NCBI GenBank assembly: GCA_964594925.1
Contig: CAZQOG010000001.1
Coordinates: 3,239 to 67,238, forward strand
Reading direction: 5' to 3'
DNA length: 64,000 nt
Origin: an uncultured Desulfohalobiaceae bacterium
GTDB lineage: Bacteria > Desulfobacterota > Desulfovibrionia > Desulfovibrionales > CAZUBS01
The translations under genes were made by a program, and so were the position numbers. Below are positions 2,586 to 63,494 of the stretch, piece by piece. Below the pieces are notes generated by a model. It saw nothing but the letters and a program-made list of their open reading frames with translations. It did no database searches and had not been told where the DNA came from. The first letter of the stretch is position 1. Each line of letters begins with the position of its first letter.

Positions 2586-3001
2586 TCATTGAGACAACAA
2601 ACCCAGAAGCTTGTCCCGCATGTCCGTCACAGACCTATACTCGCCCTTGTCAACCAGGGCCTGGACCACGGCTGGATCCACGTTTAAATAGTCGTGCACC
2701 AGGACATTGCGAAAGCCGATCATTTTCATGCAACGGGAATGTTCTTGATCCGTCAGGCAATTGCGCCGCAGAAGCTCATCAACAGCTTCCCGGGACCTTG
2801 TCACTGTGCGCGCGAACTTCTTTTCCAGCACGTACCGGCTGAGTCCTATCAGTGACTCGACAAGGACCTGGACGGCCCTTTCCACGCTCAGCTGATCCCG
2901 CTCGCTGAGATGGCCCTGATCCTTTTGAGCGATTCAAGGACGCCGACCATTCTGTCGATATGAGCGGCCAGCTCCTTTTCATAGACAATGTCTCGCGTCA
3001 T
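2586..3001 (-). pseudogene. hepT: hepT (DUF86/HEPN toxin) split by a frameshift
   Basis: ATG at 3001 overlaps the mntA stop (ATGA). It gives 37 aa (MTRDIVYEKELAAHIDRMVGVLESLKRIRAISASGIS) and then a stop at 2888. The rest (ORF 2586..2885, GTG-initiated in the track) continues in another frame and carries the HEPN R-x4-H motif in GFRNVLVHDY. Both frames are open between 2891 and 2933. The joined length of about 136 aa matches typical HepT. Confidence 0.7.
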
Positions 3002-3444
3002 GGTTCGTGATGAGAGTCGGAAGTAGTCGGGAATACGGAGGGCCTGTCTGTGGCAGTGAACAGCTCGGGCGCGTAATCCTTCTCGATTTTGGAGACTACG
3101 GATTGCTCGATCCGCCGCACATGCGGCACGTTGCGGTCATAGATGCGCAACCCGTTGATAATGCTCCACTGCAGAGCAGGGGGGGCAATTTCCAGATCAA
3201 CCACACTCACTTTCCCATACAGTTTCAGCTCCCGCTGCAATACCTCTTCAGCTTGCTGGGGGCGCATAAATCTTTCCACCGGATTCTGGAGCCAGTGGGT
3301 GAACAATACGGCCAGGTCCCAGTCGCTTTCCGACAGTGCCGTGCCCCGGGCCCTAGACCCATAAAGGTAGACGGCATCAACGGCAAAGCGTTCCCGCAGG
3401 ATGTCCACCACCTTCCTGAGAACATGTTCTTGGGATTCAGCCAT
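2998..3444 (-). CDS. mntA: MntA-type nucleotidyltransferase antitoxin
   Basis: Track ORF 2998..3675 trimmed to the internal ATG at 3444 (MAESQEHVLRK...); upstream residues are translated repeat sequence. GS-x-RG...D-x-D motif (YLYGSRARGTALSESDWDLAV). 4-nt ATGA overlap with hepT. Confidence 0.8.
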   Translation of the reverse strand: MAESQEHVLRKVVDILRERFAVDAVYLYGSRARGTALSESDWDLAVLFTHWLQNPVERFMRPQQAEEVLQRELKLYGKVSVVDLEIAPPALQWSIINGLRIYDRNVPHVRRIEQSVVSKIEKDYAPELFTATDRPSVFPTTSDSHHEP

Positions 3445-3502
3445 GCCGGAAATGTACCCAATTTCAGACCGTGAGGAAAGGGACGTATTCGACCTTAGCA
3501 GT

Positions 3503-3652
3503 CCGTTGAAAAATCCCCGCTGGACTACGTTGCTTCTCCCAGGGCAAACCCTCACGTATAGGGAATACGCTTCGGCCTTGCCCTGGGAAAAGCGCACTGT
3601 GCCACGGCGAAGCGTATGCGAAGCCTGGGTTGCCAGCGTGGTTTTTGAACGG
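3503..3652. repeat. 150-bp TIR element (family B), full copy
   Basis: Ends are CCGTTGAAAAATCC ... GGTTTTTGAACGG. Internal complementary pairs CCCAGGGCAA/TTGCCCTGGG and ATACGCTTCG/CGAAGCGTAT. Reverse-oriented full copy at 47301-47448, shorter copy at 47468-47584, fragments at 25139-25163, 44917-44974 and 47265-47283. Confidence 0.8.
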
Positions 3653-3690
3653 ACTGTTGAAGAGGACTTTTTCAACGGACTGTTAGAGCT

Positions 3691-3753
3691 CTCTTGCTTC
3701 CCCCCTTCGCATGAAGCTACGGAGGGCAGGCCAGCTTCCAGCTTCGAGCTTCA
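3691..3753 (-). repeat. heptad GAAGCTN element (family A)
   Basis: The sense (minus) strand reads TAA|TGAAGCTCGAAGCTGGAAGCTGGCCTGCCCTCCGTAGCTTCATGCGAAGGGGGGAAGCAAGAG directly after the epimerase stop. Near-identical sequence in + orientation at 28050-28103. Confidence 0.8.
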
Positions 3754-4999: not shown

Positions 5000-5035
5000 A
5001 AAAAACAGCACAAAGCTACGGAGGACAGACAATCC

Positions 5036-5120
5036 TGCCTCTTGCTTTCCTTCCGACTTCGAACTTCGAACTTTCTTGCTTTCAGCTTTGAGCTTTCAGC
5101 TTCCACTTTTAACCTTCCAG
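5036..5120 (-). repeat. heptad element (family A)
   Basis: Sense (minus) strand: GTGGAAGCTGAAAGCTCAAAGCTGAAAGCAAGAAAGTTCGAAGTTCGAAGTCGGAAGGAAAGCAAGAGG. Begins within a few nt of the stop of ORF 5126..6010. Confidence 0.8.
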
Positions 5121-5125
5121 CTGTC

Positions 5126-6010
5126 TTAGTAACCGTGCGCTAAGGTGCAGTCGAGCTTGGAGTGGTGTGGGGCTCGGTACTTGAGTGTGGGCTCGTGCAC
5201 TCGAAGTGGATGTGGCGGCCCTTGTCTGGACGGGGGAAGGAATACCTGCTCCCAGCACAGCCGGGTGGTGTCGACCATATCCAACTCCACGCCGTGGGCC
5301 AGGATGGTCTTGAGCTCGGTGGAGACAAAGAGCTCGCCTTTACCCCGCCCAAGGAACAAGGGCAGGCCGCGGCAGACCCACCACAACCGGTCTGTTCGGC
5401 GGCTGTGCAGGCATACCAGGGAGAACCTGCCCCGGACCCTTTCCAAGACGCTGTCCAGGGAACCTTCCAAATCGCCTGCCTGACCAAGTGCCCTGGCCAT
5501 GCGCCCGGCCAGGAAGCGTGCCTCCCCATGGGCAAGCCGCATATCCTTTAAATCCGGTGCGTCCCGCCGCAGGCCCAGCTCCTTCGGGTTGTCCACCCGA
5601 CCCCAGAATCCAACCGTGACTAACCCCTGCTCGTCCTGGCCCACACCCCCCTTCCAGGGCCCGAACTGGTCCTCGCAGCAGGTCCTGACCAACCCGAACC
5701 CGCTCCGGGCCCGTGAGCATCCATGGGGCACCAGCTCTTCCACAAGGGAGTTGAACGATCCGGACATCTTGACCGTGACCACCCCCCCGCTCCCTGCAAA
5801 AGCCACGCAACAGGCAACCTCCCCCTTTTCCTGCAGGCGCATCAGGTCCTGGAGCAGCACCGGCATTGCCGGGCGGTTTCCTGCATAGGCAACAAGCACC
5901 CCTGCTACCCCTCTTCCCTGGTCCGGGCTTCCAAAAAGCGCAGATAATTGGACAGCAGACCGGCGTATTGCTGGATTCTGAGGGAGGAGCTGTGTAGCAT
6001 CTTCCAACAC
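5126..6010 (-). CDS. hypothetical protein; weak resemblance to a class-II (Ntn) glutamine amidotransferase fold but without the N-terminal Cys
   Basis: 294-aa ORF (GTG start in track) with plausible GC3-rich codons. The segment GRFSLVCLHSRRTDRLWWVCRGLPLFLGRGKGELFVSTELKTIL resembles the RD-x-G-x-PL...SE motif of GATase-2 domains. No catalytic Cys seen. Several overlapping alternative ORFs. Confidence 0.4.
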   Translation of the reverse strand: MLEDATQLLPQNPAIRRSAVQLSALFGSPDQGRGVAGVLVAYAGNRPAMPVLLQDLMRLQEKGEVACCVAFAGSGGVVTVKMSGSFNSLVEELVPHGCSRARSGFGLVRTCCEDQFGPWKGGVGQDEQGLVTVGFWGRVDNPKELGLRRDAPDLKDMRLAHGEARFLAGRMARALGQAGDLEGSLDSVLERVRGRFSLVCLHSRRTDRLWWVCRGLPLFLGRGKGELFVSTELKTILAHGVELDMVDTTRLCWEQVFLPPSRQGPPHPLRVHEPTLKYRAPHHSKLDCTLAHGY

Positions 6011-6091
6011 TATCCAGCTGCCCGAGCTGCAGGCAACCTGATTTTCAAAAGGCGGGATTGGGTAGGGGTAAAGGTAGGGAAAAGTGCTGGT

Positions 6092-7342
6092 TCAGGTGGG
6101 TTGTTCACTCTCTCGGGTGTACCACTCGTAGGTCTCGGCAATGCCTTGGTGCAAGGGAATGGAGGCTTTCCAGCCCAGGGCGGTCAGGCGGGAGACGTCC
6201 AGGAGCTTGCGCGGGGTGCCGTCCGGCCTGGTGTGGTCCCAGACCACCTGCCCTCTATAGCCAACCACCTCGGCCACAAGGGAGGCGATGTCCATGATGG
6301 CGGCGTCTTTTCCCGTGCCGATGTTGAAGAGTGGCTGGCTGGACGAAGATGGTGAGGCGTGAGGCGTGAGGGGGGAGACAGGGGCGGGACGAGAAAAAAT
6401 TGTGTCCCGGGGCTGGGTCATGAGGAAACAGCAGGCATCTGCCAGATCGTCCACGTGCAGAAACTCACGTCTCGGGGCGCCGGTGCCCCAGAGCACGACC
6501 TTTGGAGAGCTGGAAGCTTGAAGCTGGAAGCTTGAAGCAAGAGATGAAGAACGTGAAATGTAGGTTTCTTCCCCTTGCCTTGATTCTTTCTCCTGCTTCA
6601 AACTTCGAACTTCGAACTTCGAACTCGATTCCTCTTGCTTCGAGCTTCCAGCTTCCAGCTTCGAGCTTCTTTCTATTCCCAACCCTTCCAGCACGTCGTC
6701 CGGGATGGGGCCGAAGCGTTGCTCGTCCCTGGCTACGGCGGCGAGGTCGCCATGCTGGGCCAGCTTGGCCAGATGGAACTTGCGCATCAGGGCGGGGAGG
6801 ACATGGGAGGTGCACAGGTCGAAGCTGTCCCCCGGGCCGTAGAGGTTGGTGGGCATGACCGGGATGTACTCGGTGTTGTGCTGCCTGTTGTAGGCCCAGC
6901 ACATCTCGATGCCCGCGATCTTGGCCACTGCATAGGCGCTGTTGGTGGCCTCCAGTGGACCGGTCATCAGGTGCTCCTCGCGCATGGGCTGGGGCGCCTC
7001 GCGCGGGTAGATGCAGGAGCTGCCGAGGAAGAGCAGCCGCTTCACCCCGTTCAGGAAGCTGTGGTGGATGACGTTGTCCTGGATCTGCAGGTTGGTGTGA
7101 ATGAAGTCGGCCGGATAGGTGGCATTGGCCAGGATCCCGCCCACCCTGGCCGCGGCCAGAAACACGTATTCGGGCTTCTCGGCGGCAAAAAAATCGGCCA
7201 CGGCCCGCTGATCGGTCAGGTCGAGTTCTCTGCTGGTCCGCAGAAGCAGGTTGTCATACCCCTCCGACCGAAGCCTACGCACCAAAGCCGACCCCACTAG
7301 GCCACGATGACCGGCTATGTAGATTTTGGAAGATAGATGCAT
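6092..7342 (-). CDS. fcl: GDP-L-fucose synthase (GDP-4-keto-6-deoxymannose 3,5-epimerase/4-reductase) carrying an in-frame repeat insertion
   Basis: 416 aa versus about 320 for E. coli Fcl. Collinear with Fcl: IYIAGHRGLVGSA, LAAARVGGILANATYPADFI, LFLGSSCIYP, YAVAKIAG, VMPTNLYGP, REFLHVDD, PDGTPRKLLDVSRL. About 57 extra residues (ERSSKLEAGSSKQEE...SSFQLQASSSP) are encoded by a heptad repeat element. Confidence 0.9.
   Translation of the reverse strand: MHLSSKIYIAGHRGLVGSALVRRLRSEGYDNLLLRTSRELDLTDQRAVADFFAAEKPEYVFLAAARVGGILANATYPADFIHTNLQIQDNVIHHSFLNGVKRLLFLGSSCIYPREAPQPMREEHLMTGPLEATNSAYAVAKIAGIEMCWAYNRQHNTEYIPVMPTNLYGPGDSFDLCTSHVLPALMRKFHLAKLAQHGDLAAVARDEQRFGPIPDDVLEGLGIERSSKLEAGSSKQEESSSKFEVRSLKQEKESRQGEETYISRSSSLASSFQLQASSSPKVVLWGTGAPRREFLHVDDLADACCFLMTQPRDTIFSRPAPVSPLTPHASPSSSSQPLFNIGTGKDAAIMDIASLVAEVVGYRGQVVWDHTRPDGTPRKLLDVSRLTALGWKASIPLHQGIAETYEWYTRESEQPT
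6505..6674. repeat. heptad hairpin element (family A) inside the fcl coding sequence
   Basis: Left arm 6505-6543 is GAGAGCTGGAAGCTTGAAGCTGGAAGCTTGAAGCAAGAG. Right arm 6631-6669 is its imperfect inverted copy. The centre contains (TTCGAAC)x3. No stop codon in the fcl frame. Confidence 0.85.
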
Positions 7343-7343
7343 T

Positions 7344-7963
7344 GTTTTATGTTTTAGGTTTTAGGTTTTAGGAAAGAATGAAAATTGTTTTATGTTTTAG
7401 GAAAGAGTGAGAGATGATTTTTTTTATGAGAATAAAATGTGTGATTAGGATTTTAGGTATGAGATGAGTGATTGGAGCTTGCCCGAAAGGATTTTGAGTT
7501 CTTTGATCATCTCCTGGGCCGAAGAACGTTTTATAAAACCAACATGATGGGCAATGTACATTTGGGTTCTAAGTTCTGCAGCCGAGCCCTTTGCTATATG
7601 GAGAAAACGAACAAAGTCAGCATTTGAGCCACGTTCAGATCCTTCCGCAATATTGGAAGCAATCGAAACAGATGCCCGAGTCATTTGATCCTTTAATCCG
7701 TAATCATTGCAATTACGAAGCATTCTATAGACTTGAACTGCTATACGAGTAGCACTTCTCCACACATCAAGATCTTCAAAAGAACCATAGGCCATGTCAC
7801 CAAACTCCTTCCCAACCTCAAATCACAACTCCAAGCCCTCCCAATATATAGTCAAAAAAATCACGCCCATAATACTCAAAAAAAAGATATTAAACCTCTG
7901 TTATTGACAAATCCCTTCTTTTCATTGCCTTTCACCTAAAACATAAAACCTAAAACCTAAAAC
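7344..7963. other. cassette bounded by inverted heptamer arrays (GTTTTAG)n ... (CTAAAAC)n, carrying a four-helix-bundle gene
   Basis: Left arm 7344-7372 is GTTTTAT(GTTTTAG)3G, with a second short array at 7387-7401. Right arm 7935-7963 is CCTAAAACATAAAACCTAAAACCTAAAAC. The arms are about 27/29 complementary. The cassette fills the gmd-fcl gap almost exactly. Confidence 0.7.
7445..7795 (-). CDS. four-helix-bundle protein (23S rRNA intervening-sequence protein / Avd-like family)
   Basis: 116 aa. FEDLDVWRSA...SIASNIAEGSERGS...FLHIAKGSAAELRTQ pattern characteristic of the TIGR02436-type family. Confidence 0.8.
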   Translation of the reverse strand: MAYGSFEDLDVWRSATRIAVQVYRMLRNCNDYGLKDQMTRASVSIASNIAEGSERGSNADFVRFLHIAKGSAAELRTQMYIAHHVGFIKRSSAQEMIKELKILSGKLQSLISYLKS

Positions 7964-7984
7964 ATCCCCCCACATTTCCCAACC

Positions 7985-10747: not shown

Positions 10748-10972
10748 AAGAAGAGCTGGAAGCTGGAAGCTGGAAGCAAGAGAGTTCGAAGTTGGAAGTT
10801 CGAAGTCGGAAGGTAGGATAATGCAAGCTGAAAGCTCAAAGCTGAAAGCAAGAGAGTTCGAAGTTGGAAGTTCGAAGTCGGAAGGAAGGATAATGCAAGC
10901 TGAAAGCTCAAAGCTCAAAGCTGAAAGCAGGAGAGTTCGAAGTTGGAAGTTCGAAGTCGGAAGGTAGGAGAG
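10748..10972 (+). repeat. three tandem composite units (72 and 79 bp period) of heptad repeats
   Basis: The core AGTTCGAAGTTGGAAGTTCGAAGTCGGAAGG recurs at 10783, 10855 and 10934. Each is preceded by (R)AAGCTN heptads plus GCAAGAG and followed by TAGGATAATGCA. Confidence 0.85.
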
Positions 10973-14125: not shown

Positions 14126-14158
14126 GGAAATTCCTTAAAAGGATTGAGGTGGAGGTTG

Positions 14159-14301
14159 GTTTATGTTTTAGGTTTTAGGTTTTAGGTGAAGAGGATGTGG
14201 TAATGAGTTATGGTGGGAGCTGTTGCCCTTGCAATGAAAAAAAAATGAACCCATTCCACTGATTCCTCTTAACATAAAACATAAAACCTAAAACATAAAA
14301 C
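14159..14301. repeat. gene-less (GTTTTAG)n / (CTAAAAC)n hairpin element
   Basis: Left arm 14159-14186 is GTTTAT(GTTTTAG)3G followed by TGAAGAGG. Right arm CCTCTT + AACATAAAACATAAAACCTAAAACATAAAAC is at 14265-14301. Extra AAACATAAAACC at 14317-14328. Lies between the dehydrogenase start and the cysQ stop. Confidence 0.8.
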
Positions 14302-14341
14302 TTCTTCTCTCTTCCAAACATAAAACCAAAAAGCAATTTCT

Positions 14342-15148: not shown

Positions 15149-15197
15149 TGTTTTGATGCCGGTTATTTGATGATTGATTGGTTGATTGGGTGCAAGT

Positions 15198-15350
15198 GAT
15201 TTATGTTTTAGGTTTTAGGTTTTAGGTTTTAGGTTTTAGGTTGAAGAGGTTAGGGAGGTTGGAGGATAGTTTTCGCTTATTGTGAGGCAAGAGCGCTTTA
15301 AGCTGAAGGATCCTAAATCTCCTCTTTCCCTAAAACCTAAAACATAAAAC
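15198..15350. repeat. gene-less (GTTTTAG)n / (CTAAAAC)n hairpin element
   Basis: Left arm 15198-15240 is GATTTAT(GTTTTAG)5G followed by TTGAAGAGG. Right arm CCTCTTT + CCTAAAACCTAAAACATAAAAC is at 15321-15350. Lies between the cysQ start and the sat-cysC stop. Confidence 0.8.
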
Positions 15351-15357
15351 ATTCCCC

Positions 15358-25165: not shown

Positions 25166-25305
25166 TTGAAGCTGGAAGCTCGAAGCTCGAAGCTTGAAGC
25201 AAGAGAGGAAGTTCGAAGCTCGAAGTCGGAAGCTGGAAGCAAACCAGGAAGAACAAATACAATTTGGGAACTCGATTCTTTTCTTTCCTTCGAACTTCGA
25301 ACTTA
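25166..25305 (+). repeat. 140-bp heptad element (family A) with a unique core
   Basis: TTGAAGCTGGAAGCTCGAAGCTCGAAGCTTGAAGCAAGAGAGGAAGTTCGAAGCTCGAAGTCGGAAGCTGGAAGCAAACCAGGAAGAACAAATACAAT...CTTCGAACTTCGAAC. A copy about 90 percent similar (aligned by eye) lies in reverse orientation at 44779-44915. Confidence 0.85.
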
Positions 25306-26866: not shown

Positions 26867-28015
26867 ATGGTCCTCAGCCAGCCCGTCTCCTTGCTCCTGG
26901 TCTCCATGGCCGCCGCGGTCCTGCCCTGGATCAGCCGCTGGCTCCGTGTCCCGTCCGTGGTCATGGAAATCCTGTTCGGGGTGGTGCTCGGCAAGAGTTT
27001 GCTCCAGCTGCAACTCGGCGGGGAGTGGATGCCGATCCTGGCCGAGCTGGGCTTTTTGCTGCTCATGTTCCACTCCGGCATGGAGATCAACTTCAACATG
27101 CTCCTCGCGCAGAGCCGGCGAAATCTCCTGGTCCAGCTGGGCATATTCGCCGCCACCCTGGCCATGGCCGTGGGTGTGGCCGTTCTGATCGGCCGGGGCG
27201 TTTTCCTGGCCCTGGTGCTCTCCACCACCTCCCTGGGCCTGGTCATGCCCACCCTCAAGGAGGCAGGGCTCTCCCGGACCGCCACGGGCCAGTCCGTGCT
27301 GGTGGCGGCCACCCTGGCCGACTTCCTGACCCTGTTCGGCATCACCATGTTCCTGCTCTGGAACGACAGCGGGCTGAGCCTGCAGCTTTTGACCCCCTTC
27401 CCCCTGTTTCTGGGCTTCGGGGTCCTGCTCTGGGCGGGCAGGCTCTGGGCCTGGTGGCACCCTCGCCAGGCCGGCCGTTTTCTGGGTCCCTCGGACAGCC
27501 AGGAGATCGGGGTCCGCTACTCCCTGGCCCTGCTGTTTTTGTTCGTGGCCCTGTCGGAGCTGGTGCACATGGAGCCCGTGCTCGGCGCCTTCATGGGCGG
27601 CTGCGTCATCGCCTTTGTGTTCCGGGGGAAGATCGACCTGGAAGGCAAGATCTCCGTCCTGGGATTCGGCTTCCTGATCCCCATCTTCTTCATCCACGTG
27701 GGCATGCAGTTCGACGTGGCTTCCCTGCTCAGCCCGGGCCAGATCCTGTTCACCCTGGTGCTGCTGGCGGCCGCCCTGGCGGTCAAGATCGTGCCCGCCC
27801 TGCTCTTCGTGCTGCTCCGGATGCCCCTGCGCGCCGCCCTGCGCAACGGGATCCTGCTCTCCTCCCGGTTGAGCCTCATCGTGGCAGCAGCCTCCATCGG
27901 GCTGGAGCAGGGCTTCCTGGACCAGCCCACCAAGGACGCCGTCGTCTTCCTGGCCCTCCTGACCTGCTTCCTCGGCCCGACCCTGTTCAAGCTTTTGAAG
28001 GAGAAAAGAAGCTAG
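26867..28015 (+). CDS. cation:proton antiporter (CPA2 / Kef-type Na+/H+ exchanger family)
   Basis: 382 aa polytopic membrane protein. ILAELGFLLLMFHSGMEIN motif. Starts 5 nt after the RCK/Usp gene. Confidence 0.8.
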   Translation: MVLSQPVSLLLVSMAAAVLPWISRWLRVPSVVMEILFGVVLGKSLLQLQLGGEWMPILAELGFLLLMFHSGMEINFNMLLAQSRRNLLVQLGIFAATLAMAVGVAVLIGRGVFLALVLSTTSLGLVMPTLKEAGLSRTATGQSVLVAATLADFLTLFGITMFLLWNDSGLSLQLLTPFPLFLGFGVLLWAGRLWAWWHPRQAGRFLGPSDSQEIGVRYSLALLFLFVALSELVHMEPVLGAFMGGCVIAFVFRGKIDLEGKISVLGFGFLIPIFFIHVGMQFDVASLLSPGQILFTLVLLAAALAVKIVPALLFVLLRMPLRAALRNGILLSSRLSLIVAAASIGLEQGFLDQPTKDAVVFLALLTCFLGPTLFKLLKEKRS

Positions 28016-28132
28016 AAGCTGGAAGCTCGAAGCTCGAAGCTCGAAGCTAGAAGCTGGAAGCTGGCCTGCCCTCCGTAGCTTCATGCGAAGGGGGGAAGCA
28101 AGAGAATTTGAAGTTCGAAGCTGGAAGCTGGC
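28008..28132 (+). repeat. heptad element (family A): 8 perfectly phased GAAGCTN units, then GGCCTGCCCTCCGTAGCTTCATGCGAAGGGGGGAAGCAAGAG and a second short run
   Basis: GAAGCT at 28008, 28015, 28022, 28029, 28036, 28043, 28050 and 28057. The antiporter stop TAG (28013-28015) lies inside the first units. Confidence 0.9.
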
Positions 28133-28190
28133 CTGGATGCAGGTAATCTTCTGTTTGAGATTTTTTTCCCGCACACCGATATCCATTCTC

Positions 28191-34700: not shown

Positions 34701-36060
34701 CCCGGAGCCGGGCAGCTATCGCCTGCAACTCCCCCTGACCTGGAGCCTCTTCCCCTGGACCCTTGAAATGCGCCGCAACCAAGCGATTTCCGGGTATCTG
34801 CGCTCAGCCCTGCGGCTGGATGCGGTCTCCGAGGCCCTGGCCCTGGACGACCAGTTCTTTGACGGCACGGCCAGTGTCGACATCACCCTGGCCGGCACCT
34901 GGTCCGGGCCGGAATTGTCCGGGGGGGGCGACCTGACTGGTGGAAGCTATGAAAACATCGCCTCGGGGACAGCCATCTCCAGCATAAGCGGCAGCTTGTC
35001 CTCCCTGCGGGACAACACCTTCGCGGTCGACCTGAGCGGTTCCGGTCCGGGAGGCGGCCGGGTCGAGCTGACCGGAACCCTGGGCGTGCCCCCCCTGAGC
35101 CCGCTGCACTACGACCTGCGTGCGGAAGTGGAGCAGGCCCGGCTTGTCCAGCGCGACCGGCTCCAAAGCACGGCCACCGGGACCATGCGGGTCGATGGTG
35201 ATGCCCAGGGGCTGAGCCTGAGCGGAAGGCTGACCCTGGACCCGTCAGAGCTGCGCCTGCGAAGCGGTACACCGGACATGGTCTCCATCCCCATCGAGGA
35301 GGTCAATGTTGACGACAGGCACACCTCGCCGGATCAGGACGGATCCGGCTTTGTAAGCCGCCTGGATGTAGCCCTGGAGTTTCCCGCCCGGCTCTCCGTG
35401 CGCGGACGGGGGCTTGACTCGGAATGGCGGGGAAAGCTGTCCGCAGGTGGAACCGCAGACCGGCCCGAGCTCCGAGGGCGCCTGCAGGTGGTCCGGGGCA
35501 CCTACACCTTTCTCGGGGAACGCTTCCAGCTCGACCAGGGCAGCATCACATTTGACGGCGCTTCCCCCCCCAACCCACTGGTGGACCTGACTGCCATCAA
35601 CCGTGATAACGGCTTCGAGGCCCGGGTCCTGCTGTCGGGGCAGCCCGACAATCTCACGGTGACCCTGGAGTCCGATCCCGCCCTTCCCCGGGACGAAATC
35701 CTGGCCCGGGTCCTTTTCGGCCGCTCCGTGTCCGAGCTTTCACCCCTGCAGGCCCTCAAGCTGGCCCAGACCGTGGGGCAGCTGACCGGGAGGGATACGG
35801 GGCCCGACGTGCTGGGCGAGACCAGGGAGTTCCTGGGGGTGGACGAGCTCGAGATAGGCCAGGGCGCGGCCGGCGGCACGACCCTGGGCATCGGGACCTA
35901 CATCCACGAGGACATCTACATCAAGGGCGAAAAAGGCCTTGACCCCGAGGACGACGCAATCTCCGTGGAGATCGAGATCACCCCCAACATCGGCCTGGAA
36001 ACAGAGGTCGGCGGCTCCGGCCGCAGCGGCGTGGAGCTGTTCTGGAAGAAGGATTATTGA
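31720..36060 (+). CDS. tamB: translocation and assembly module inner-membrane subunit TamB (DUF490 C-terminus)
   Basis: 1446 aa. N-terminal TM anchor, long beta-rich repetitive body. C-terminal ...TLGIGTYIHEDIYIKGEKG...IEITPNIGLETEVG motif typical of TamB. Confidence 0.85.
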   Translation: MSKRRLLRRILRAAGLSLAATMLILGGMFAFLQTDMGQLFLARWLSASLSSPGASVSIQGLGGTFPWSLRVLSIEVADDQGSWLTADNLYLQLKPGELLHGRAHLPLIQLDKLNLHRLPEGHDRAEPSETATLPSLNLPPLDIDHLAVASLVIHEPLARQQLQLSITGSTNLAGPTSTARLTAASLQGPETNLQGRFQLSRDDPGGLLVDVSYFEAPGGLLGTALPQTSQNASLKLDLNGQGPLRDWQGSYSIACGDLVRSRGDLHLDGLDSARLTVDGQMTLEASLLPPWLRQEPGPDGTFRLVLSRAKDGAVLLNSLRLEGGGSKLALQGDVDLTRGVLQAQFSLRTPLAAELLDRAADIDVQGLTRFSGSLKGSFEEPILAVAAPARALRFQDVGIEDAGVEATLHVRPSGPRAGLKVNATIQARQAELPGFTSPLSPVSLDLSGSTADFTTLHLERVVLKERTAMVTARGDLNLDSRNVNARVELRDLALERLSGMAATGLHGGLDLDLDLSGSLDQPLLNLTLEGAVTDLGGVPKEASPMIGDHISLDGGGSLRGSRLQVDSLQVSGLSTLSLNGTVDVASNAFDLEYAIASGDPAPLLASTPVSMDAPPQFHGTLQGTDGDFTLKLVAETPLLAVAGRELHSPALSFELSSLPETGFTGRAGLRADFQGRPLTGSLDLQLPGKELLLNNILLRSGSTELQGSATISTGPYMVQAKARLLAPDLSLWEDLVPLDGPAGSLDAALRARFDRTLQMDMEGEIVGLSLARTSIKQASFELSGENLLADPEFTTTVQAREMRWKHALLPSTRLTLSGTPNRIGFTGSLSALAPMRGSLDLSGQVERRESGTLLTLDNLQGRADRVDFALDGPADIRFAPGSLTIRDLALHTDHGLLNLEGTADEDALDVRAVMEDLDPALFSALAGLPLEGRISGKATLTGEADAPLLQADFSGRDLQVASGRIGQLSPFDMTAALRMTGRQTDIQGTISGFDPEPGSYRLQLPLTWSLFPWTLEMRRNQAISGYLRSALRLDAVSEALALDDQFFDGTASVDITLAGTWSGPELSGGGDLTGGSYENIASGTAISSISGSLSSLRDNTFAVDLSGSGPGGGRVELTGTLGVPPLSPLHYDLRAEVEQARLVQRDRLQSTATGTMRVDGDAQGLSLSGRLTLDPSELRLRSGTPDMVSIPIEEVNVDDRHTSPDQDGSGFVSRLDVALEFPARLSVRGRGLDSEWRGKLSAGGTADRPELRGRLQVVRGTYTFLGERFQLDQGSITFDGASPPNPLVDLTAINRDNGFEARVLLSGQPDNLTVTLESDPALPRDEILARVLFGRSVSELSPLQALKLAQTVGQLTGRDTGPDVLGETREFLGVDELEIGQGAAGGTTLGIGTYIHEDIYIKGEKGLDPEDDAISVEIEITPNIGLETEVGGSGRSGVELFWKKDY

Positions 36061-36310: not shown

Positions 36311-37264
36311 CTATTCTTCTTCTTGCTTCAAGCTTCCAGCTTCCAGCTTCGAGCTTGCATCTTCTCTTCTAAAGCTTCTCGGATGGGCCTGGTCGTAGAC
36401 CGTGGTGATCCTGGACAGGGTGAGGTGGGTGTAACGCTGGGTGGTTGCGAGCCGGGAGTGGCCCAGAAGCTCCTGAACGCTTCGAAGGTCCGCCCCTGAC
36501 TCGAGCATGTGGGTGGCGAAGCTGTGCCGCAGGGTGTGCGGGCTGACGTCCTGGGGCAGGCCTGCGGCCCTGGAGAGCCGCTCCACGATGCGGTTGGCCT
36601 CCCGGCGCTGCAGGCGACCCCCCCGCATGCCCAAAAACAGGGCCCGCTGCCCCGGAGGCGGTGAAAAGGCACCCCGCACGTCCAGGTAGCGCAGCAACCG
36701 CTCCCTGGCCGCCCTGGTCAGCAGGGCGATCCTCTCCTTGCCCCCTTTGCCCTGGACACGGGTCACCCCCTCGCCCAAGTCGATGTCCACCACATCCAGG
36801 CCCAGGGCCTCGCTGATGCGCAGCCCCGATCCGTAGAGCAGCTCGGCCAGGGCCAGGTCGCGGCAGCCGCGGGGGCCCGCCTCGACGGACGCCTCCATCA
36901 GGGACAGGGCCTGATCGACATTGAGGGCCCTGGGATGGCGGCTCTCCTGCTTGGGGTTGGAGGTGCCCGAGCTTGGGTCTTTGCGCAGCAGCTTGCGTCG
37001 ACGGCAGTACCCGAAAAAGGAGCGGGCCGCGGAAAGCTTGCGCGCCATGGTGGACCTGCGCAGCCCCCGGCGGTGCATCTCCCCCAGATAGCCCCGCAGG
37101 TGGTCCCGCTGCACCGCGGAGGGGGTTTTCAGGCTCAGCCCGTGGCGCTTGAGAAAGCTCTCCAGCTGCTCCAGGTCGCGGCCGTAGGCCGTGACCGTAG
37201 CCGGGGAGTAGCCCTTCTCCACCTCGAGCCAGGCCAGGAAATCTTTGACCGGGTCACGGGGCAT
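36311..37264 (-). CDS. tyrosine site-specific recombinase XerC/XerD family, with a repeat-encoded C-terminal tail
   Basis: 317 aa. N-terminal SAM-like core-binding domain. Catalytic HTLRHSFATHML...LLGHSRLATTQRYTH. After the usual ...YDQAHPR end, the ORF runs on about 20 codons (SFRREDASSKLEAGSLKQEEE) into heptad repeats at 36311-36356. Confidence 0.85.
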   Translation of the reverse strand: MPRDPVKDFLAWLEVEKGYSPATVTAYGRDLEQLESFLKRHGLSLKTPSAVQRDHLRGYLGEMHRRGLRRSTMARKLSAARSFFGYCRRRKLLRKDPSSGTSNPKQESRHPRALNVDQALSLMEASVEAGPRGCRDLALAELLYGSGLRISEALGLDVVDIDLGEGVTRVQGKGGKERIALLTRAARERLLRYLDVRGAFSPPPGQRALFLGMRGGRLQRREANRIVERLSRAAGLPQDVSPHTLRHSFATHMLESGADLRSVQELLGHSRLATTQRYTHLTLSRITTVYDQAHPRSFRREDASSKLEAGSLKQEEE

Positions 37265-44531: not shown

Positions 44532-44974
44532 GGAGTCCCCTGTAACGGCATCAGAGCGTCCTCTTCCCTTCTTCGAACTTTCTTGCTTCCAGCTTCCAGC
44601 TTCGAGCTTCCAGCTGTAACGCAGCCCCCCCTTCGCACAAGACTACGGAGGGCAGGCCAGCGGGGATGTTTCAACGGCCCGCTACCCCAGCCAACCCATC
44701 GTACAAGGCAGGGCACGTGCAACGTGCCCCTACAACCCAATGCAAAATTCTCCCACCAGGGAACAAGTTCGAAGTCGGAAGTTTGAAGTTCGAAGGAAAG
44801 AAAAGAATCGAGTTCCCATTGTATTTATTCTTCCTGGTTTGCTTCCAGCTTCCGACTTCGAGCTTCGAACTTCTTCCCTTGCTTCCAGCTTCCAGCTTCG
44901 AGCTTCCAGCTTCAATTTACGTGAGGGTTTGCCCTTGGGGAAGCAACGCAGTCCAGCGGGGATTTTTCAACGGC
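44532..44974. repeat. 443-bp intercistronic repeat island between cheY and cheA
   Basis: Made of a family A run (44561-44615), CTACGGAGGGCAGGCC module, family B fragment, half-REP plus shared 74-bp block (44705-44778), 140-bp family A element (44779-44915) and a family B fragment (44917-44974). Confidence 0.85.
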
Positions 44975-63438: not shown

Positions 63439-63473
63439 GAAGCTCGAAGCTGGAAGCTCGAAGCTGGAAGCAA
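63439..63473 (+). repeat. heptad element (family A)
   Basis: GAAGCT at 63439, 63446, 63453 and 63460, then GAAGCAAGAGG. Starts 2 nt after the helicase stop TGA (63435-63437). Confidence 0.85.
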
Positions 63474-63494
63474 GAGGGTTTTGAAGATTCTGAT

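Follow-up and report, generated by a model that had tools for sequence, protein, structure and literature searches.

In-frame insertion of a heptad-repeat hairpin element in the GDP-L-fucose synthase gene of an uncultured Desulfohalobiaceae bacterium

We analyzed a stretch of 64,000 nt of contig CAZQOG010000001.1 from an uncultured Desulfohalobiaceae bacterium (the whole stretch is called the window below), in which the GDP-L-fucose synthase gene fcl (6092..7342, minus strand; a 416-aa open reading frame, ORF) contains a hairpin element made of tandem 7-nt units (heptads). The inserted element (6503..6670, minus strand) is 168 nt long, which equals 24 heptads or 56 codons, and encodes residues R225-P280 of Fcl. 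We found that a discrete, dispersed repeat unit (about 168 nt) is represented here by one copy, and that both halves of fcl around it are under purifying selection. The reading that we favor, and hold to be probable, is that the insert is a passenger repeat, selfish or neutral, which is translated and tolerated as a disordered loop at a permissive site of a functional enzyme.

The inserted element and its second copy

The key evidence for a discrete unit is a second copy of it. On contig L016 (the loci compared are numbered L0xx and the Fcl proteins encoded there P0xxx), positions 5670-5837 match window 6504-6670 with 92.9% identity over 168 nt (E=5e-65). The match takes in the core that is not made of heptads; homology breaks off on the two sides at GGAGAGCTGG... 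and ...CGAGCTTCT, respectively, and the flanks of the two copies are unrelated. The L016 copy is intergenic and lies between a 90-aa membrane-protein ORF and a divergent transporter-like gene. L016 is a contig of an uncultured Desulfohalobiaceae metagenome-assembled genome (MAG), which is a close relative of the window organism because their syntenic stretches are 82-95% identical. From the homology between the two copies we defined the ends of the element as 6503/6504 and 6670/6671 (+/- ~4 nt). A local origin of the fcl repeat by growth or slippage is ruled out by this 93%-identical full unit with the same ends. The peptide RSSKLEAGSSKQEESSSKFEVRSLKQEKESRQGEETYISRSSSLASSFQLQASSSP is the exact translation of the minus strand of 6503-6670, and its 56 codons are free of stops. 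The sequence-only reading of this DNA had proposed that a heptad hairpin of a dispersed family sits in fcl with the frame preserved and no stop codon, and both proposals were borne out.

The two inverted arms, located by a repeat search, lie at 6508-6543 and 6632-6667 and are 36 nt long and 92% complementary. Inverted GAAGCTN arms had been placed before at 6505-6543 and 6631-6669; the arms stood and their limits were refined, within an element of 6503-6670. In gene sense, the 5' arm (6632..6667, minus strand) is (GAAGCTS)4-GAAGCAAGAG and encodes SSKLEAGSSKQEE, and the 3' arm (6508..6543, minus strand) is CTCTTGCTTC-(NAGCTTC)4 and encodes SSLASSFQLQASS. The core between the arms (6544..6631, minus strand) is composed of degenerate heptads in the register of the 5' arm, an internal array, which is (CTTCGAA)4.3 at 6596-6625 or (GAAGTTC)4 in gene sense, and about 55 nt of unique sequence (6544-6595). 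Tandem Repeats Finder gave period-7 arrays at 6503-6538, 6596-6625 and 6637-6669. Since heptad units 1-15 of the 24 (gene sense) keep one unbroken NGAAGNN register, most of the “core” is made of decayed heptads. The seventh, variable base of the heptads is frequently mismatched between the two arms. The hairpin has a stem of 40 bp, with a folding energy of -73.3 kcal/mol as RNA (z=-6.05) and a z-score of -7.5 as DNA.

In composition the insert is alien to fcl and like non-coding DNA: its GC content is 0.47 and its GC content at third codon positions 0.45, vs 0.63 and 0.80 in the remainder of the gene (p=1e-7). An ancestral loop, with the same residues encoded by non-repeat DNA in unrelated taxa, was not found. 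The insert is absent from all homologues examined (an alignment of 20 of the best 120 Fcl homologues), save for a remnant in P0002, and an exhaustive HMMER search with the 56-aa peptide had 0 matches at E<=0.001 among 1.84 billion representatives. A word-indexed protein search with the insert gave zero matches, the identical protein included, which is a technical null that we ascribe to low complexity.

At the DNA level, GAAGCTNGAAGCT occurs 59 times in the window vs 0.29 times expected from shuffles, and the fcl element belongs to a mosaic heptad-repeat family that fills the ends of genes and the DNA between them in this Desulfohalobiaceae-related genome. Scanning one genome per species with the family signature (GAAGCTN)2-GAAGCAAGAG gave 19 loci, 11 of which are in a single Desulfohalobiaceae MAG. 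The unique core (6544-6595) is present only in the window insert and L016 among the sequences examined. The core signature GAACGTGANATGTAGGTTTCT had 0 matches in JGI metagenome contigs and viral contigs, and in metagenome and viral contigs the family signature recovered just isolated heptad hairpins from unrelated taxa.

Selection, fold and history of the insertion

The gene order around the insert is manC-gmd-(IVP)-fcl-ORF-epimerase, where IVP stands for a gene of the 23S rRNA intervening-sequence protein family. The top solved relative of the 416-aa ORF is E. coli GDP-fucose synthetase (1bws, E=3e-104); the alignment covers query residues 5-193 and 276-411 and leaves residues 194-275 (82 residues) unmatched. 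The earlier estimate of a roughly 57-residue insert relative to E. coli Fcl agrees with the element itself (56 residues) but not with the whole unmatched stretch, about 30 residues of which (LAQHGDLAAVARDEQRFGPIPDDVLEGLG) are a helical extension common to the ~350-aa Fcl branch. The remaining unmatched residues are particular to the window protein in the 20-homologue alignment, and most of the best 120 homologues are 340-365 aa long. The element is located in a variable surface excursion of Fcl, directly before the conserved PKVVLWGTG strand, and the homologue alignment confirmed the previous claim that this region varies in length among homologues.

The protein has the features of an extended short-chain dehydrogenase/reductase of the Fcl type, namely the N-terminal GxxGxxG motif (GHRGLVG at residues 11-17), the Ser-Tyr-Lys triad and the Cys/His epimerisation residues. 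The alignment with homologues shows no variation at S108, C110, Y137, K141 and H180, the counterparts of E. coli S107/C109/Y136/K140/H179. The NCBIfam equivalog GDPFucSynFcl matches in two stretches with 446 bits, and the equivalog cut-off of 500 is not reached because the insert splits the match. Some GDP-heptose reductases are among the close structural relatives found by Foldseek, and judging from the gmd/manC context the exact substrate would be that of the GDP-fucose route.

The closest relative of the window protein is P0002 (contig L001), whose gene has 88% nucleotide identity and is collinear apart from a 135-nt gap. Between the window and L001, the ratio of nonsynonymous to synonymous divergence (dN/dS, Nei-Gojobori) is 0.236 upstream of the insert (dS 0.25, p=5e-8 for <1) and 0.259 downstream of it (dS 0.42, p=8e-7 for <1). 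That purifying selection also acts downstream implies in-frame passage of ribosomes through the insert. The AlphaFold2 model, which was built on the 20-sequence alignment, has a predicted TM-score of 0.84. Its per-residue confidence (pLDDT) is below 50 in one long stretch, residues 231-268 in the middle of the insert, and in two short ones, residues 68-71 and residues 328-333, the latter being a second heptad loop described below. Foldseek superposed the model on 1e6u (E. coli Fcl) with a target-normalised TM-score of 0.95 and a root-mean-square deviation of 1.8 Å. The middle of the insert (231-268) is thus predicted to be a disordered surface loop on the Fcl fold. The sequence-only reading had left three explanations, a tolerated Ser/Lys/Glu loop, an inactivated gene, or a hairpin that is removed or acts as RNA; the first is favored by the dN/dS of ~0.25 on both sides, the invariant catalytic residues and the confident fold with a predicted disordered insert.

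Generally, an insertion of this kind can preserve the frame by chance. Of the 66 frames of 11 family elements, 30 contain no stop codon (~45%) and ~1/3 of element lengths are multiples of 3, so that a frame-preserving insertion is a ~15% event; it is merely retained by selection, and a special adaptation is not required. Read in the frame that corresponds to fcl, the intergenic sequence of L016 meets a stop codon and a 1-nt frameshift; the copy inside fcl is free of both. We propose that, with a length that is a multiple of 3 and an open frame, the ribosome would read through the hairpin element, and that this would add a 56-residue Ser/Glu/Lys-rich disordered loop to an otherwise functional enzyme. 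The element would then be passenger DNA which selection tolerates and not an adaptive domain. It may have spread without a dedicated transposase, for instance by ectopic recombination of heptad tracts with each other or by template switching.

Several points weigh against the passenger reading. The dN/dS of Fcl (~0.25) is above that of the neighboring epimerase (0.145), and some relaxation is possible; if the insertion is recent, part of the purifying signal could predate it. The translation and the activity of the insert-bearing Fcl are themselves what we infer, and a second fcl paralogue may exist outside the 64-kb window. RNase III could plausibly cut the 40-bp mRNA stem, in which case the insert would perhaps not be neutral for expression. 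As for mobility, a target-site duplication was seen beside neither the fcl copy nor the L016 copy, and Pfam scans of 30 of the 48 candidate window gene products found no transposase and no transposase associated with repetitive extragenic palindromes (RAYT); the only recombinase among the scanned products is XerD-like (36311-37264). Besides, the exact subfamily is known from two copies, one per genome.

The comparison with L001 bears on the direction of change. The segment absent from L001/P0002 (window 6529..6663, minus strand) has 135 nt or 45 codons, and the difference is an exact multiple of 3. The earlier claim that the net insert is a multiple of 3 holds in this respect, but against the closest orthologue the insert is 135 nt and not the whole 168-nt element. 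The junction of the gap is ambiguous by 5 nt, with AAGCT at both edges. At the same site L001 has AGAAGCT-TCCAACTTCGAGCTTCCAGCTCTCC, which represents the fused element termini (33 nt), and the distal 30 nt of the 3' arm are kept. Because L001 keeps both termini joined at the AAGCT microhomology, the simplest history would be an insertion before the split of the window and L001 lineages and then an in-frame deletion across the hairpin in L001, where the 135 nt would have been lost by slippage between the AAGCT microhomologies.

The reverse order is the alternative that survives best, and we regard it as possible, at clearly lower odds than the passenger reading. It takes a short heptad tract, like the 33 nt of L001, as ancestral and supposes that the full hairpin was copied in by ectopic gene conversion or template switching via heptad-arm homology. 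This would fit the loop of L001, whose length (14 residues between LG and VVLWG) is usual in the family, and the heptad tracts in the Fcl loop, which are widespread and old, with a homologous heptad-coded loop in L039 and L040. The elements are mosaics with common modules, and the concerted change of arrays indicates recombination between them. The missing target-site duplication and transposase point the same way, as does the fact that the fcl and L016 copies are 93% identical whereas syntenic non-coding element loci are heavily rearranged. However, L001 has both element ends, AGAAGCT and the terminal ...CTTCCAGCTCTCC, joined at AAGCT, which is the expected product of hairpin slippage. The predicted empty site, in which …LGIE is followed directly by KVVLWG, has a length inside the natural range of the homologues, e.g. 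P0059 and P0099, which also speaks against the reverse order.

It is less likely still, and in our view doubtful, that the main effect is at the RNA level, with the stem as an RNase III processing or decay site or a translational roadblock that tunes Fcl output and the peptide as a by-product. The stem is indeed very stable (-73 kcal/mol, z=-6), elements of the family are typically found directly at gene 3' ends or between operon genes, and the inverted arms of the neighboring IVP gene (30 nt, 93% complementary) match the geometry of the 23S rRNA intervening sequences excised by RNase III (PMC4990558). However, stems in coding regions are unwound by translating ribosomes, and purifying selection on the downstream half suggests that full-length translation matters. 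The L016 copy is located between divergent genes, where a consistent orientation is not evident and at most one transcript fits the fcl orientation. A promoter and terminator scan of 6000-7500 gave nothing, a terminator-like tail being absent in either orientation, and an Rfam search of the element returned just sub-threshold plant/animal miRNA-like hairpins and no intron family. In a narrower form, the 40-bp stem in the fcl mRNA might be an RNase III target that lowers Fcl output, by analogy with the 23S rRNA intervening-sequence stems cut by this enzyme (PMC4990558); this would be compatible with translation, and we rate it as similarly unlikely.

That fcl is disabled, i.e. that the insert prevents correct folding or abolishes activity, the open frame being of no relevance or having arisen recently by accident, is very improbable. 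The split NCBIfam match with 446 against 500 bits, a dN/dS somewhat above the neighboring gene and the fact that 3 of the 6 frames of the fcl copy are open anyway could be taken in its favor, but dN/dS is ~0.25 on either side (p<1e-6), no catalytic residue varies in the alignment, the model is a confident one with TM 0.95 to E. coli Fcl, the difference from L001 is an exact multiple of 3 and the gmd and manC operon context is intact. Inactivation, the second of the earlier explanations, is therefore disfavored. Removal of the insert before the mature protein (as an intron, an intein or by translational bypass), or an assembly artefact, is hardly credible: the hairpin superficially resembles bypass or processing signals and the contig is apparently a metagenome-type assembly, but Rfam had only sub-threshold generic hairpins and no intron family, intein motifs were not found in the 56 residues of the insert, the frame is open with no stop to bypass, and two independent assemblies agree, L001 with the remnant at the same site and L016 with the whole element, so that the removal considered earlier is unsupported.

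Heptad repeats in Fcl of other lineages and across the window

The same Fcl loop, which ends just before the conserved PKV strand, is heptad-encoded in at least 5 other lineages, mostly with other heptad types, and this recurrence supports the view of the loop as a permissive site. The loop of P0092 (L023) contains a small hairpin, (AGGACTC)3-loop-(CAGTCCT-like)4, the loop of P0011 (L021) contains CCTCNNN heptads and a separate inverted repeat, and the loop of P0104 (L025) contains repeated CCTCAAG/AAGCGTAGCG units. In P0045 (L039) the loop is (CTCCTCA)4, which encodes SSLLTPHSSPKV, and P0009 (L040) has a decayed form of this tract. The N-termini of Fcl are likewise heptad-encoded in L001, L039 and L040.

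Besides the hairpin, the window Fcl has a second in-frame heptad tract (6352..6377, minus strand). As had been read from the sequence before, (GTGAGGC)2GTGAGGG, or (GCCTCAC)3 in gene sense, encodes part of PLTPHASP there. The tract is also present in L001, in a longer form, and it is a member of a second dispersed heptad family, the GCCTCAC-family heptad being intergenic in the MAG (L006 3992-4035 and L015 2405-2434). Since three heptads equal seven codons, a heptad array encodes the same 7-residue repeat in any frame, and whether it contains a stop depends only on the variable seventh base. The second tract is readable only in the orientation found, because the opposite strand gives TGA.

The IVP gene between gmd and fcl (7445-7795; 116 aa, 23S_rRNA_IVP family, PF05635, four-helix-bundle, bAvd-like) is bracketed by inverted GTTTTAG arms at 7343-7372 and 7935-7964. 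The gmd-IVP-fcl order with adjoining heptad arrays was also found in five distant lineages (L021, L023, L025, L039 and L040), and the heptad differs per lineage. The arrays are inverted on both IVP sides in the window, L021, L023, L025 and L040, and in L039 only the upstream (GAGGACT)9 is clear. The cassette spans 7343-7984 in the window, ~875-1555 in L021, ~965-1403 in L023, ~165-745 in L025, ~455-1100 in L039 and ~700-1235 in L040. No IVP gene separates gmd and fcl in L001, the closest relative; the cassette may be mobile. In all sequence examined, no IVP gene with GAAGCTN arms was found. In L021/L022 (1-871), the gmd upstream of the 461-aa Fcl (P0011) has a 703-aa product with a faint LAGLIDADG match, which may be an intein-containing GDP-mannose dehydratase.

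Other copies of the heptad family lie elsewhere in the window. An intergenic copy of a sister subfamily B (25168..25304, plus strand) has GAAGCTN and GAAGTTC arrays and a non-heptad core of ~60 nt; it was aligned with a second window copy (44760..44914, minus strand), and a third copy is at L012 1368-1530. All three have common arms and the ~60-nt core in unrelated flanks. A non-heptad module, GGCCTGCCCTCCGTAGCTTCATGCGAAGGGGGGAAGCAAGAG, recurs beside heptad arrays at 28060-28105(+), 3690-3735(-), 44610-44660(-) and ~5012-5045, which indicates that the family has a mosaic organization like that of bacterial interspersed mosaic elements (BIMEs). In the polysaccharide locus, a pair of HepT-like RNase and MNT-type nucleotidyltransferase genes (toxin-antitoxin, 2586-3675) adjoins the heptad element at 3690-3752.

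Heptad arrays also reach into the ends of genes. In the Na/H-exchanger gene, the stop codon falls within the first heptad (28013-28015), the TamB and SNF2 genes end at, or at most 2 nt from, an array (the TamB stop codon is at the array start, 36042-36060), and heptads encode the C-terminal ~20 residues of the XerD-like recombinase (36311-36400). A tandem composite array (72 nt x 2.9) lies upstream of manC at 10754-10969, and heptad arrays add a spurious 53-residue N-terminal extension to the ManC ORF. This array was considered as a second intragenic case and rejected: the stop-free frame has no Pfam match, and the true start of ManC is at about residue 54. Two more inverted GTTTTAG-type array pairs (14157-14303 and 15197-15352), each with a spacer of ~85 nt, are located between successive minus-strand UDP-glucose dehydrogenase, inositol-monophosphatase-family and ATP-sulfurylase/APS-kinase genes and look like inter-cistronic hairpins.

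The arrays change quickly between orthologous loci. The Na/H-exchanger gene has an indel of ~110 nt at its 3' end (window 28008-28152 vs L013 7705-7744), every unit is changed from GAAGCTS to AAAGCTS in concert between window 63439-63475 and L017 ~111-160, and window 57528 has extra arms relative to the orthologous MAG locus. Such indels and concerted unit changes imply fast turnover of the arrays by slippage and homogenisation.

Single (GAAGCTN)n-GAAGCAAGAG arrays exist in intergenic positions of unrelated phyla and metagenome contigs with GC of 0.41-0.70, such as L003 1383, L010 1733, L018 3914, L002 2429, L005 5563, L008, L009, L020 and L026-L036. The taxa include Stutzerimonas, Pseudomonas, Xanthomonas, Planctomycetia, Prevotella, Sphingobacteriia and Mongoliitalea. 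An inverted heptad arm often comes next after these arrays, and the array of L018 is directly 3' of a stop codon. They possibly reflect convergence or a widespread undescribed element.

Comparison with known systems and significance

The closest known counterparts are the Rickettsia palindromic elements (RPEs), dispersed repeats of ~150 nt which are found in frame in housekeeping genes and are compatible with the fold (Ogata et al. 2000, 2002, as reviewed in PMC10969869); in R. conorii, 44 such genic copies have been reported (PMC10969869). The fcl element resembles them as a dispersed palindromic repeat with intergenic and in-frame genic copies, which would add a surface segment compatible with the fold. 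In size and copies it is comparable, with 168 nt, 36-nt arms that are 92% complementary, a second copy in L016 and an abundant family. It also appears to behave as an in-frame element, judging from 56 stop-free codons, a segment predicted to be disordered on a confident model and purifying selection on both flanks. However, the RPE families are restricted to Rickettsia, and the fcl element, which is from a different phylum and has no sequence relationship to them, is made of tandem 7-nt units and is part of a mosaic family. It is also the single mid-gene copy in these 64 kb, and instead of a conserved peptide module it encodes a low-complexity sequence with predicted disorder. The fcl element is thus an analogue of RPEs and not a family member.

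Like MITEs (miniature transposable elements with inverted repeats), the element is short (below ~300 bp), non-autonomous and hairpin-forming and has terminal inverted repeats. Its family is multi-copy and mainly extragenic beside gene ends, as are MITEs, BIMEs and REPINs, the inverted doublets of repetitive extragenic palindromic (REP) sequences (PMC10969869; Bertels & Rainey 2011, PMC3116915), and it shares with BIMEs the mosaic combination of modules. It differs from MITEs in that no target-site duplication was detected at the fcl or L016 copy. No cognate insertion-sequence transposase or RAYT was found among the 30 window products scanned. In layout the element is an inverted doublet as in REPINs, its arms being made of tandem heptads whose seventh base varies and not of a fixed REP palindrome.

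Tandem heptads have been described before, for instance the TAACTGA heptanucleotide repeats in Beggiatoaceae and cyanobacteria (PMC4679880) and the four-heptamer elements between and within genes of Geobacter metallireducens (PMC2700814). The family described here shares with them the 7-nt unit, arranged head to tail, the abundance, the mainly intergenic location near gene starts or ends with some intragenic copies, and tolerated sites that are governed by the coding potential of the heptad in each orientation; the number and sequence of units also vary between orthologous loci. The known ones are simple direct arrays, whereas here we found inverted pairs around a conserved core in a unit that is conserved between genomes. 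The long stem formed from terminal inverted repeats is reminiscent of 23S rRNA intervening sequences with an S23p/IVP ORF (PMC4990558), of which the fcl insert looks like an ORF-less version. It differs from them by its place in an mRNA coding region, by having no ORF of its own and by the GAAGCTN heptad instead of GTTTTAG, and RNase III processing would apply here by analogy.

A broader idea, tentative and in our judgment rather improbable, is that the heptad hairpins are a distinct, previously undescribed non-autonomous repeat class of Desulfobacterota-type genomes, evolutionarily tied to heptad-bracketed IVP (S23p/Avd-like) cassettes. The ORF-less hairpins would be miniature derivatives, which spread via heptad-tract homology, are processed by RNase III in double-stranded RNA form and recurrently colonise permissive loops and N-termini; colonisation would be easy because three heptads equal seven codons.

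In conclusion, what is new here is the combination of heptad arrays in a discrete conserved hairpin unit, its in-frame capture in an enzyme under purifying selection and a trimmed remnant in a sister lineage. In-frame “protein-coding palindromes” have so far been regarded mostly as a peculiarity of Rickettsia, and the fcl insert provides a clear-cut example from a free-living lineage that is unrelated to Rickettsia and has sulfate reducers as relatives. With the full insert, the trimmed remnant and the intergenic copy, three states are available for comparison, so that the birth, tolerance and decay of repeat-derived protein segments become testable. In practice, such inserts drop real enzymes under curated family cut-offs (446 vs 500 bits), and heptad arrays at gene ends give spurious ORF extensions. 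Tandem 7-nt repeats are the commonest long simple repeats in bacteria, and this case indicates that they can build discrete hairpin elements and that they have repeatedly come to encode the same surface loop, and also the N-terminus, of a conserved enzyme.

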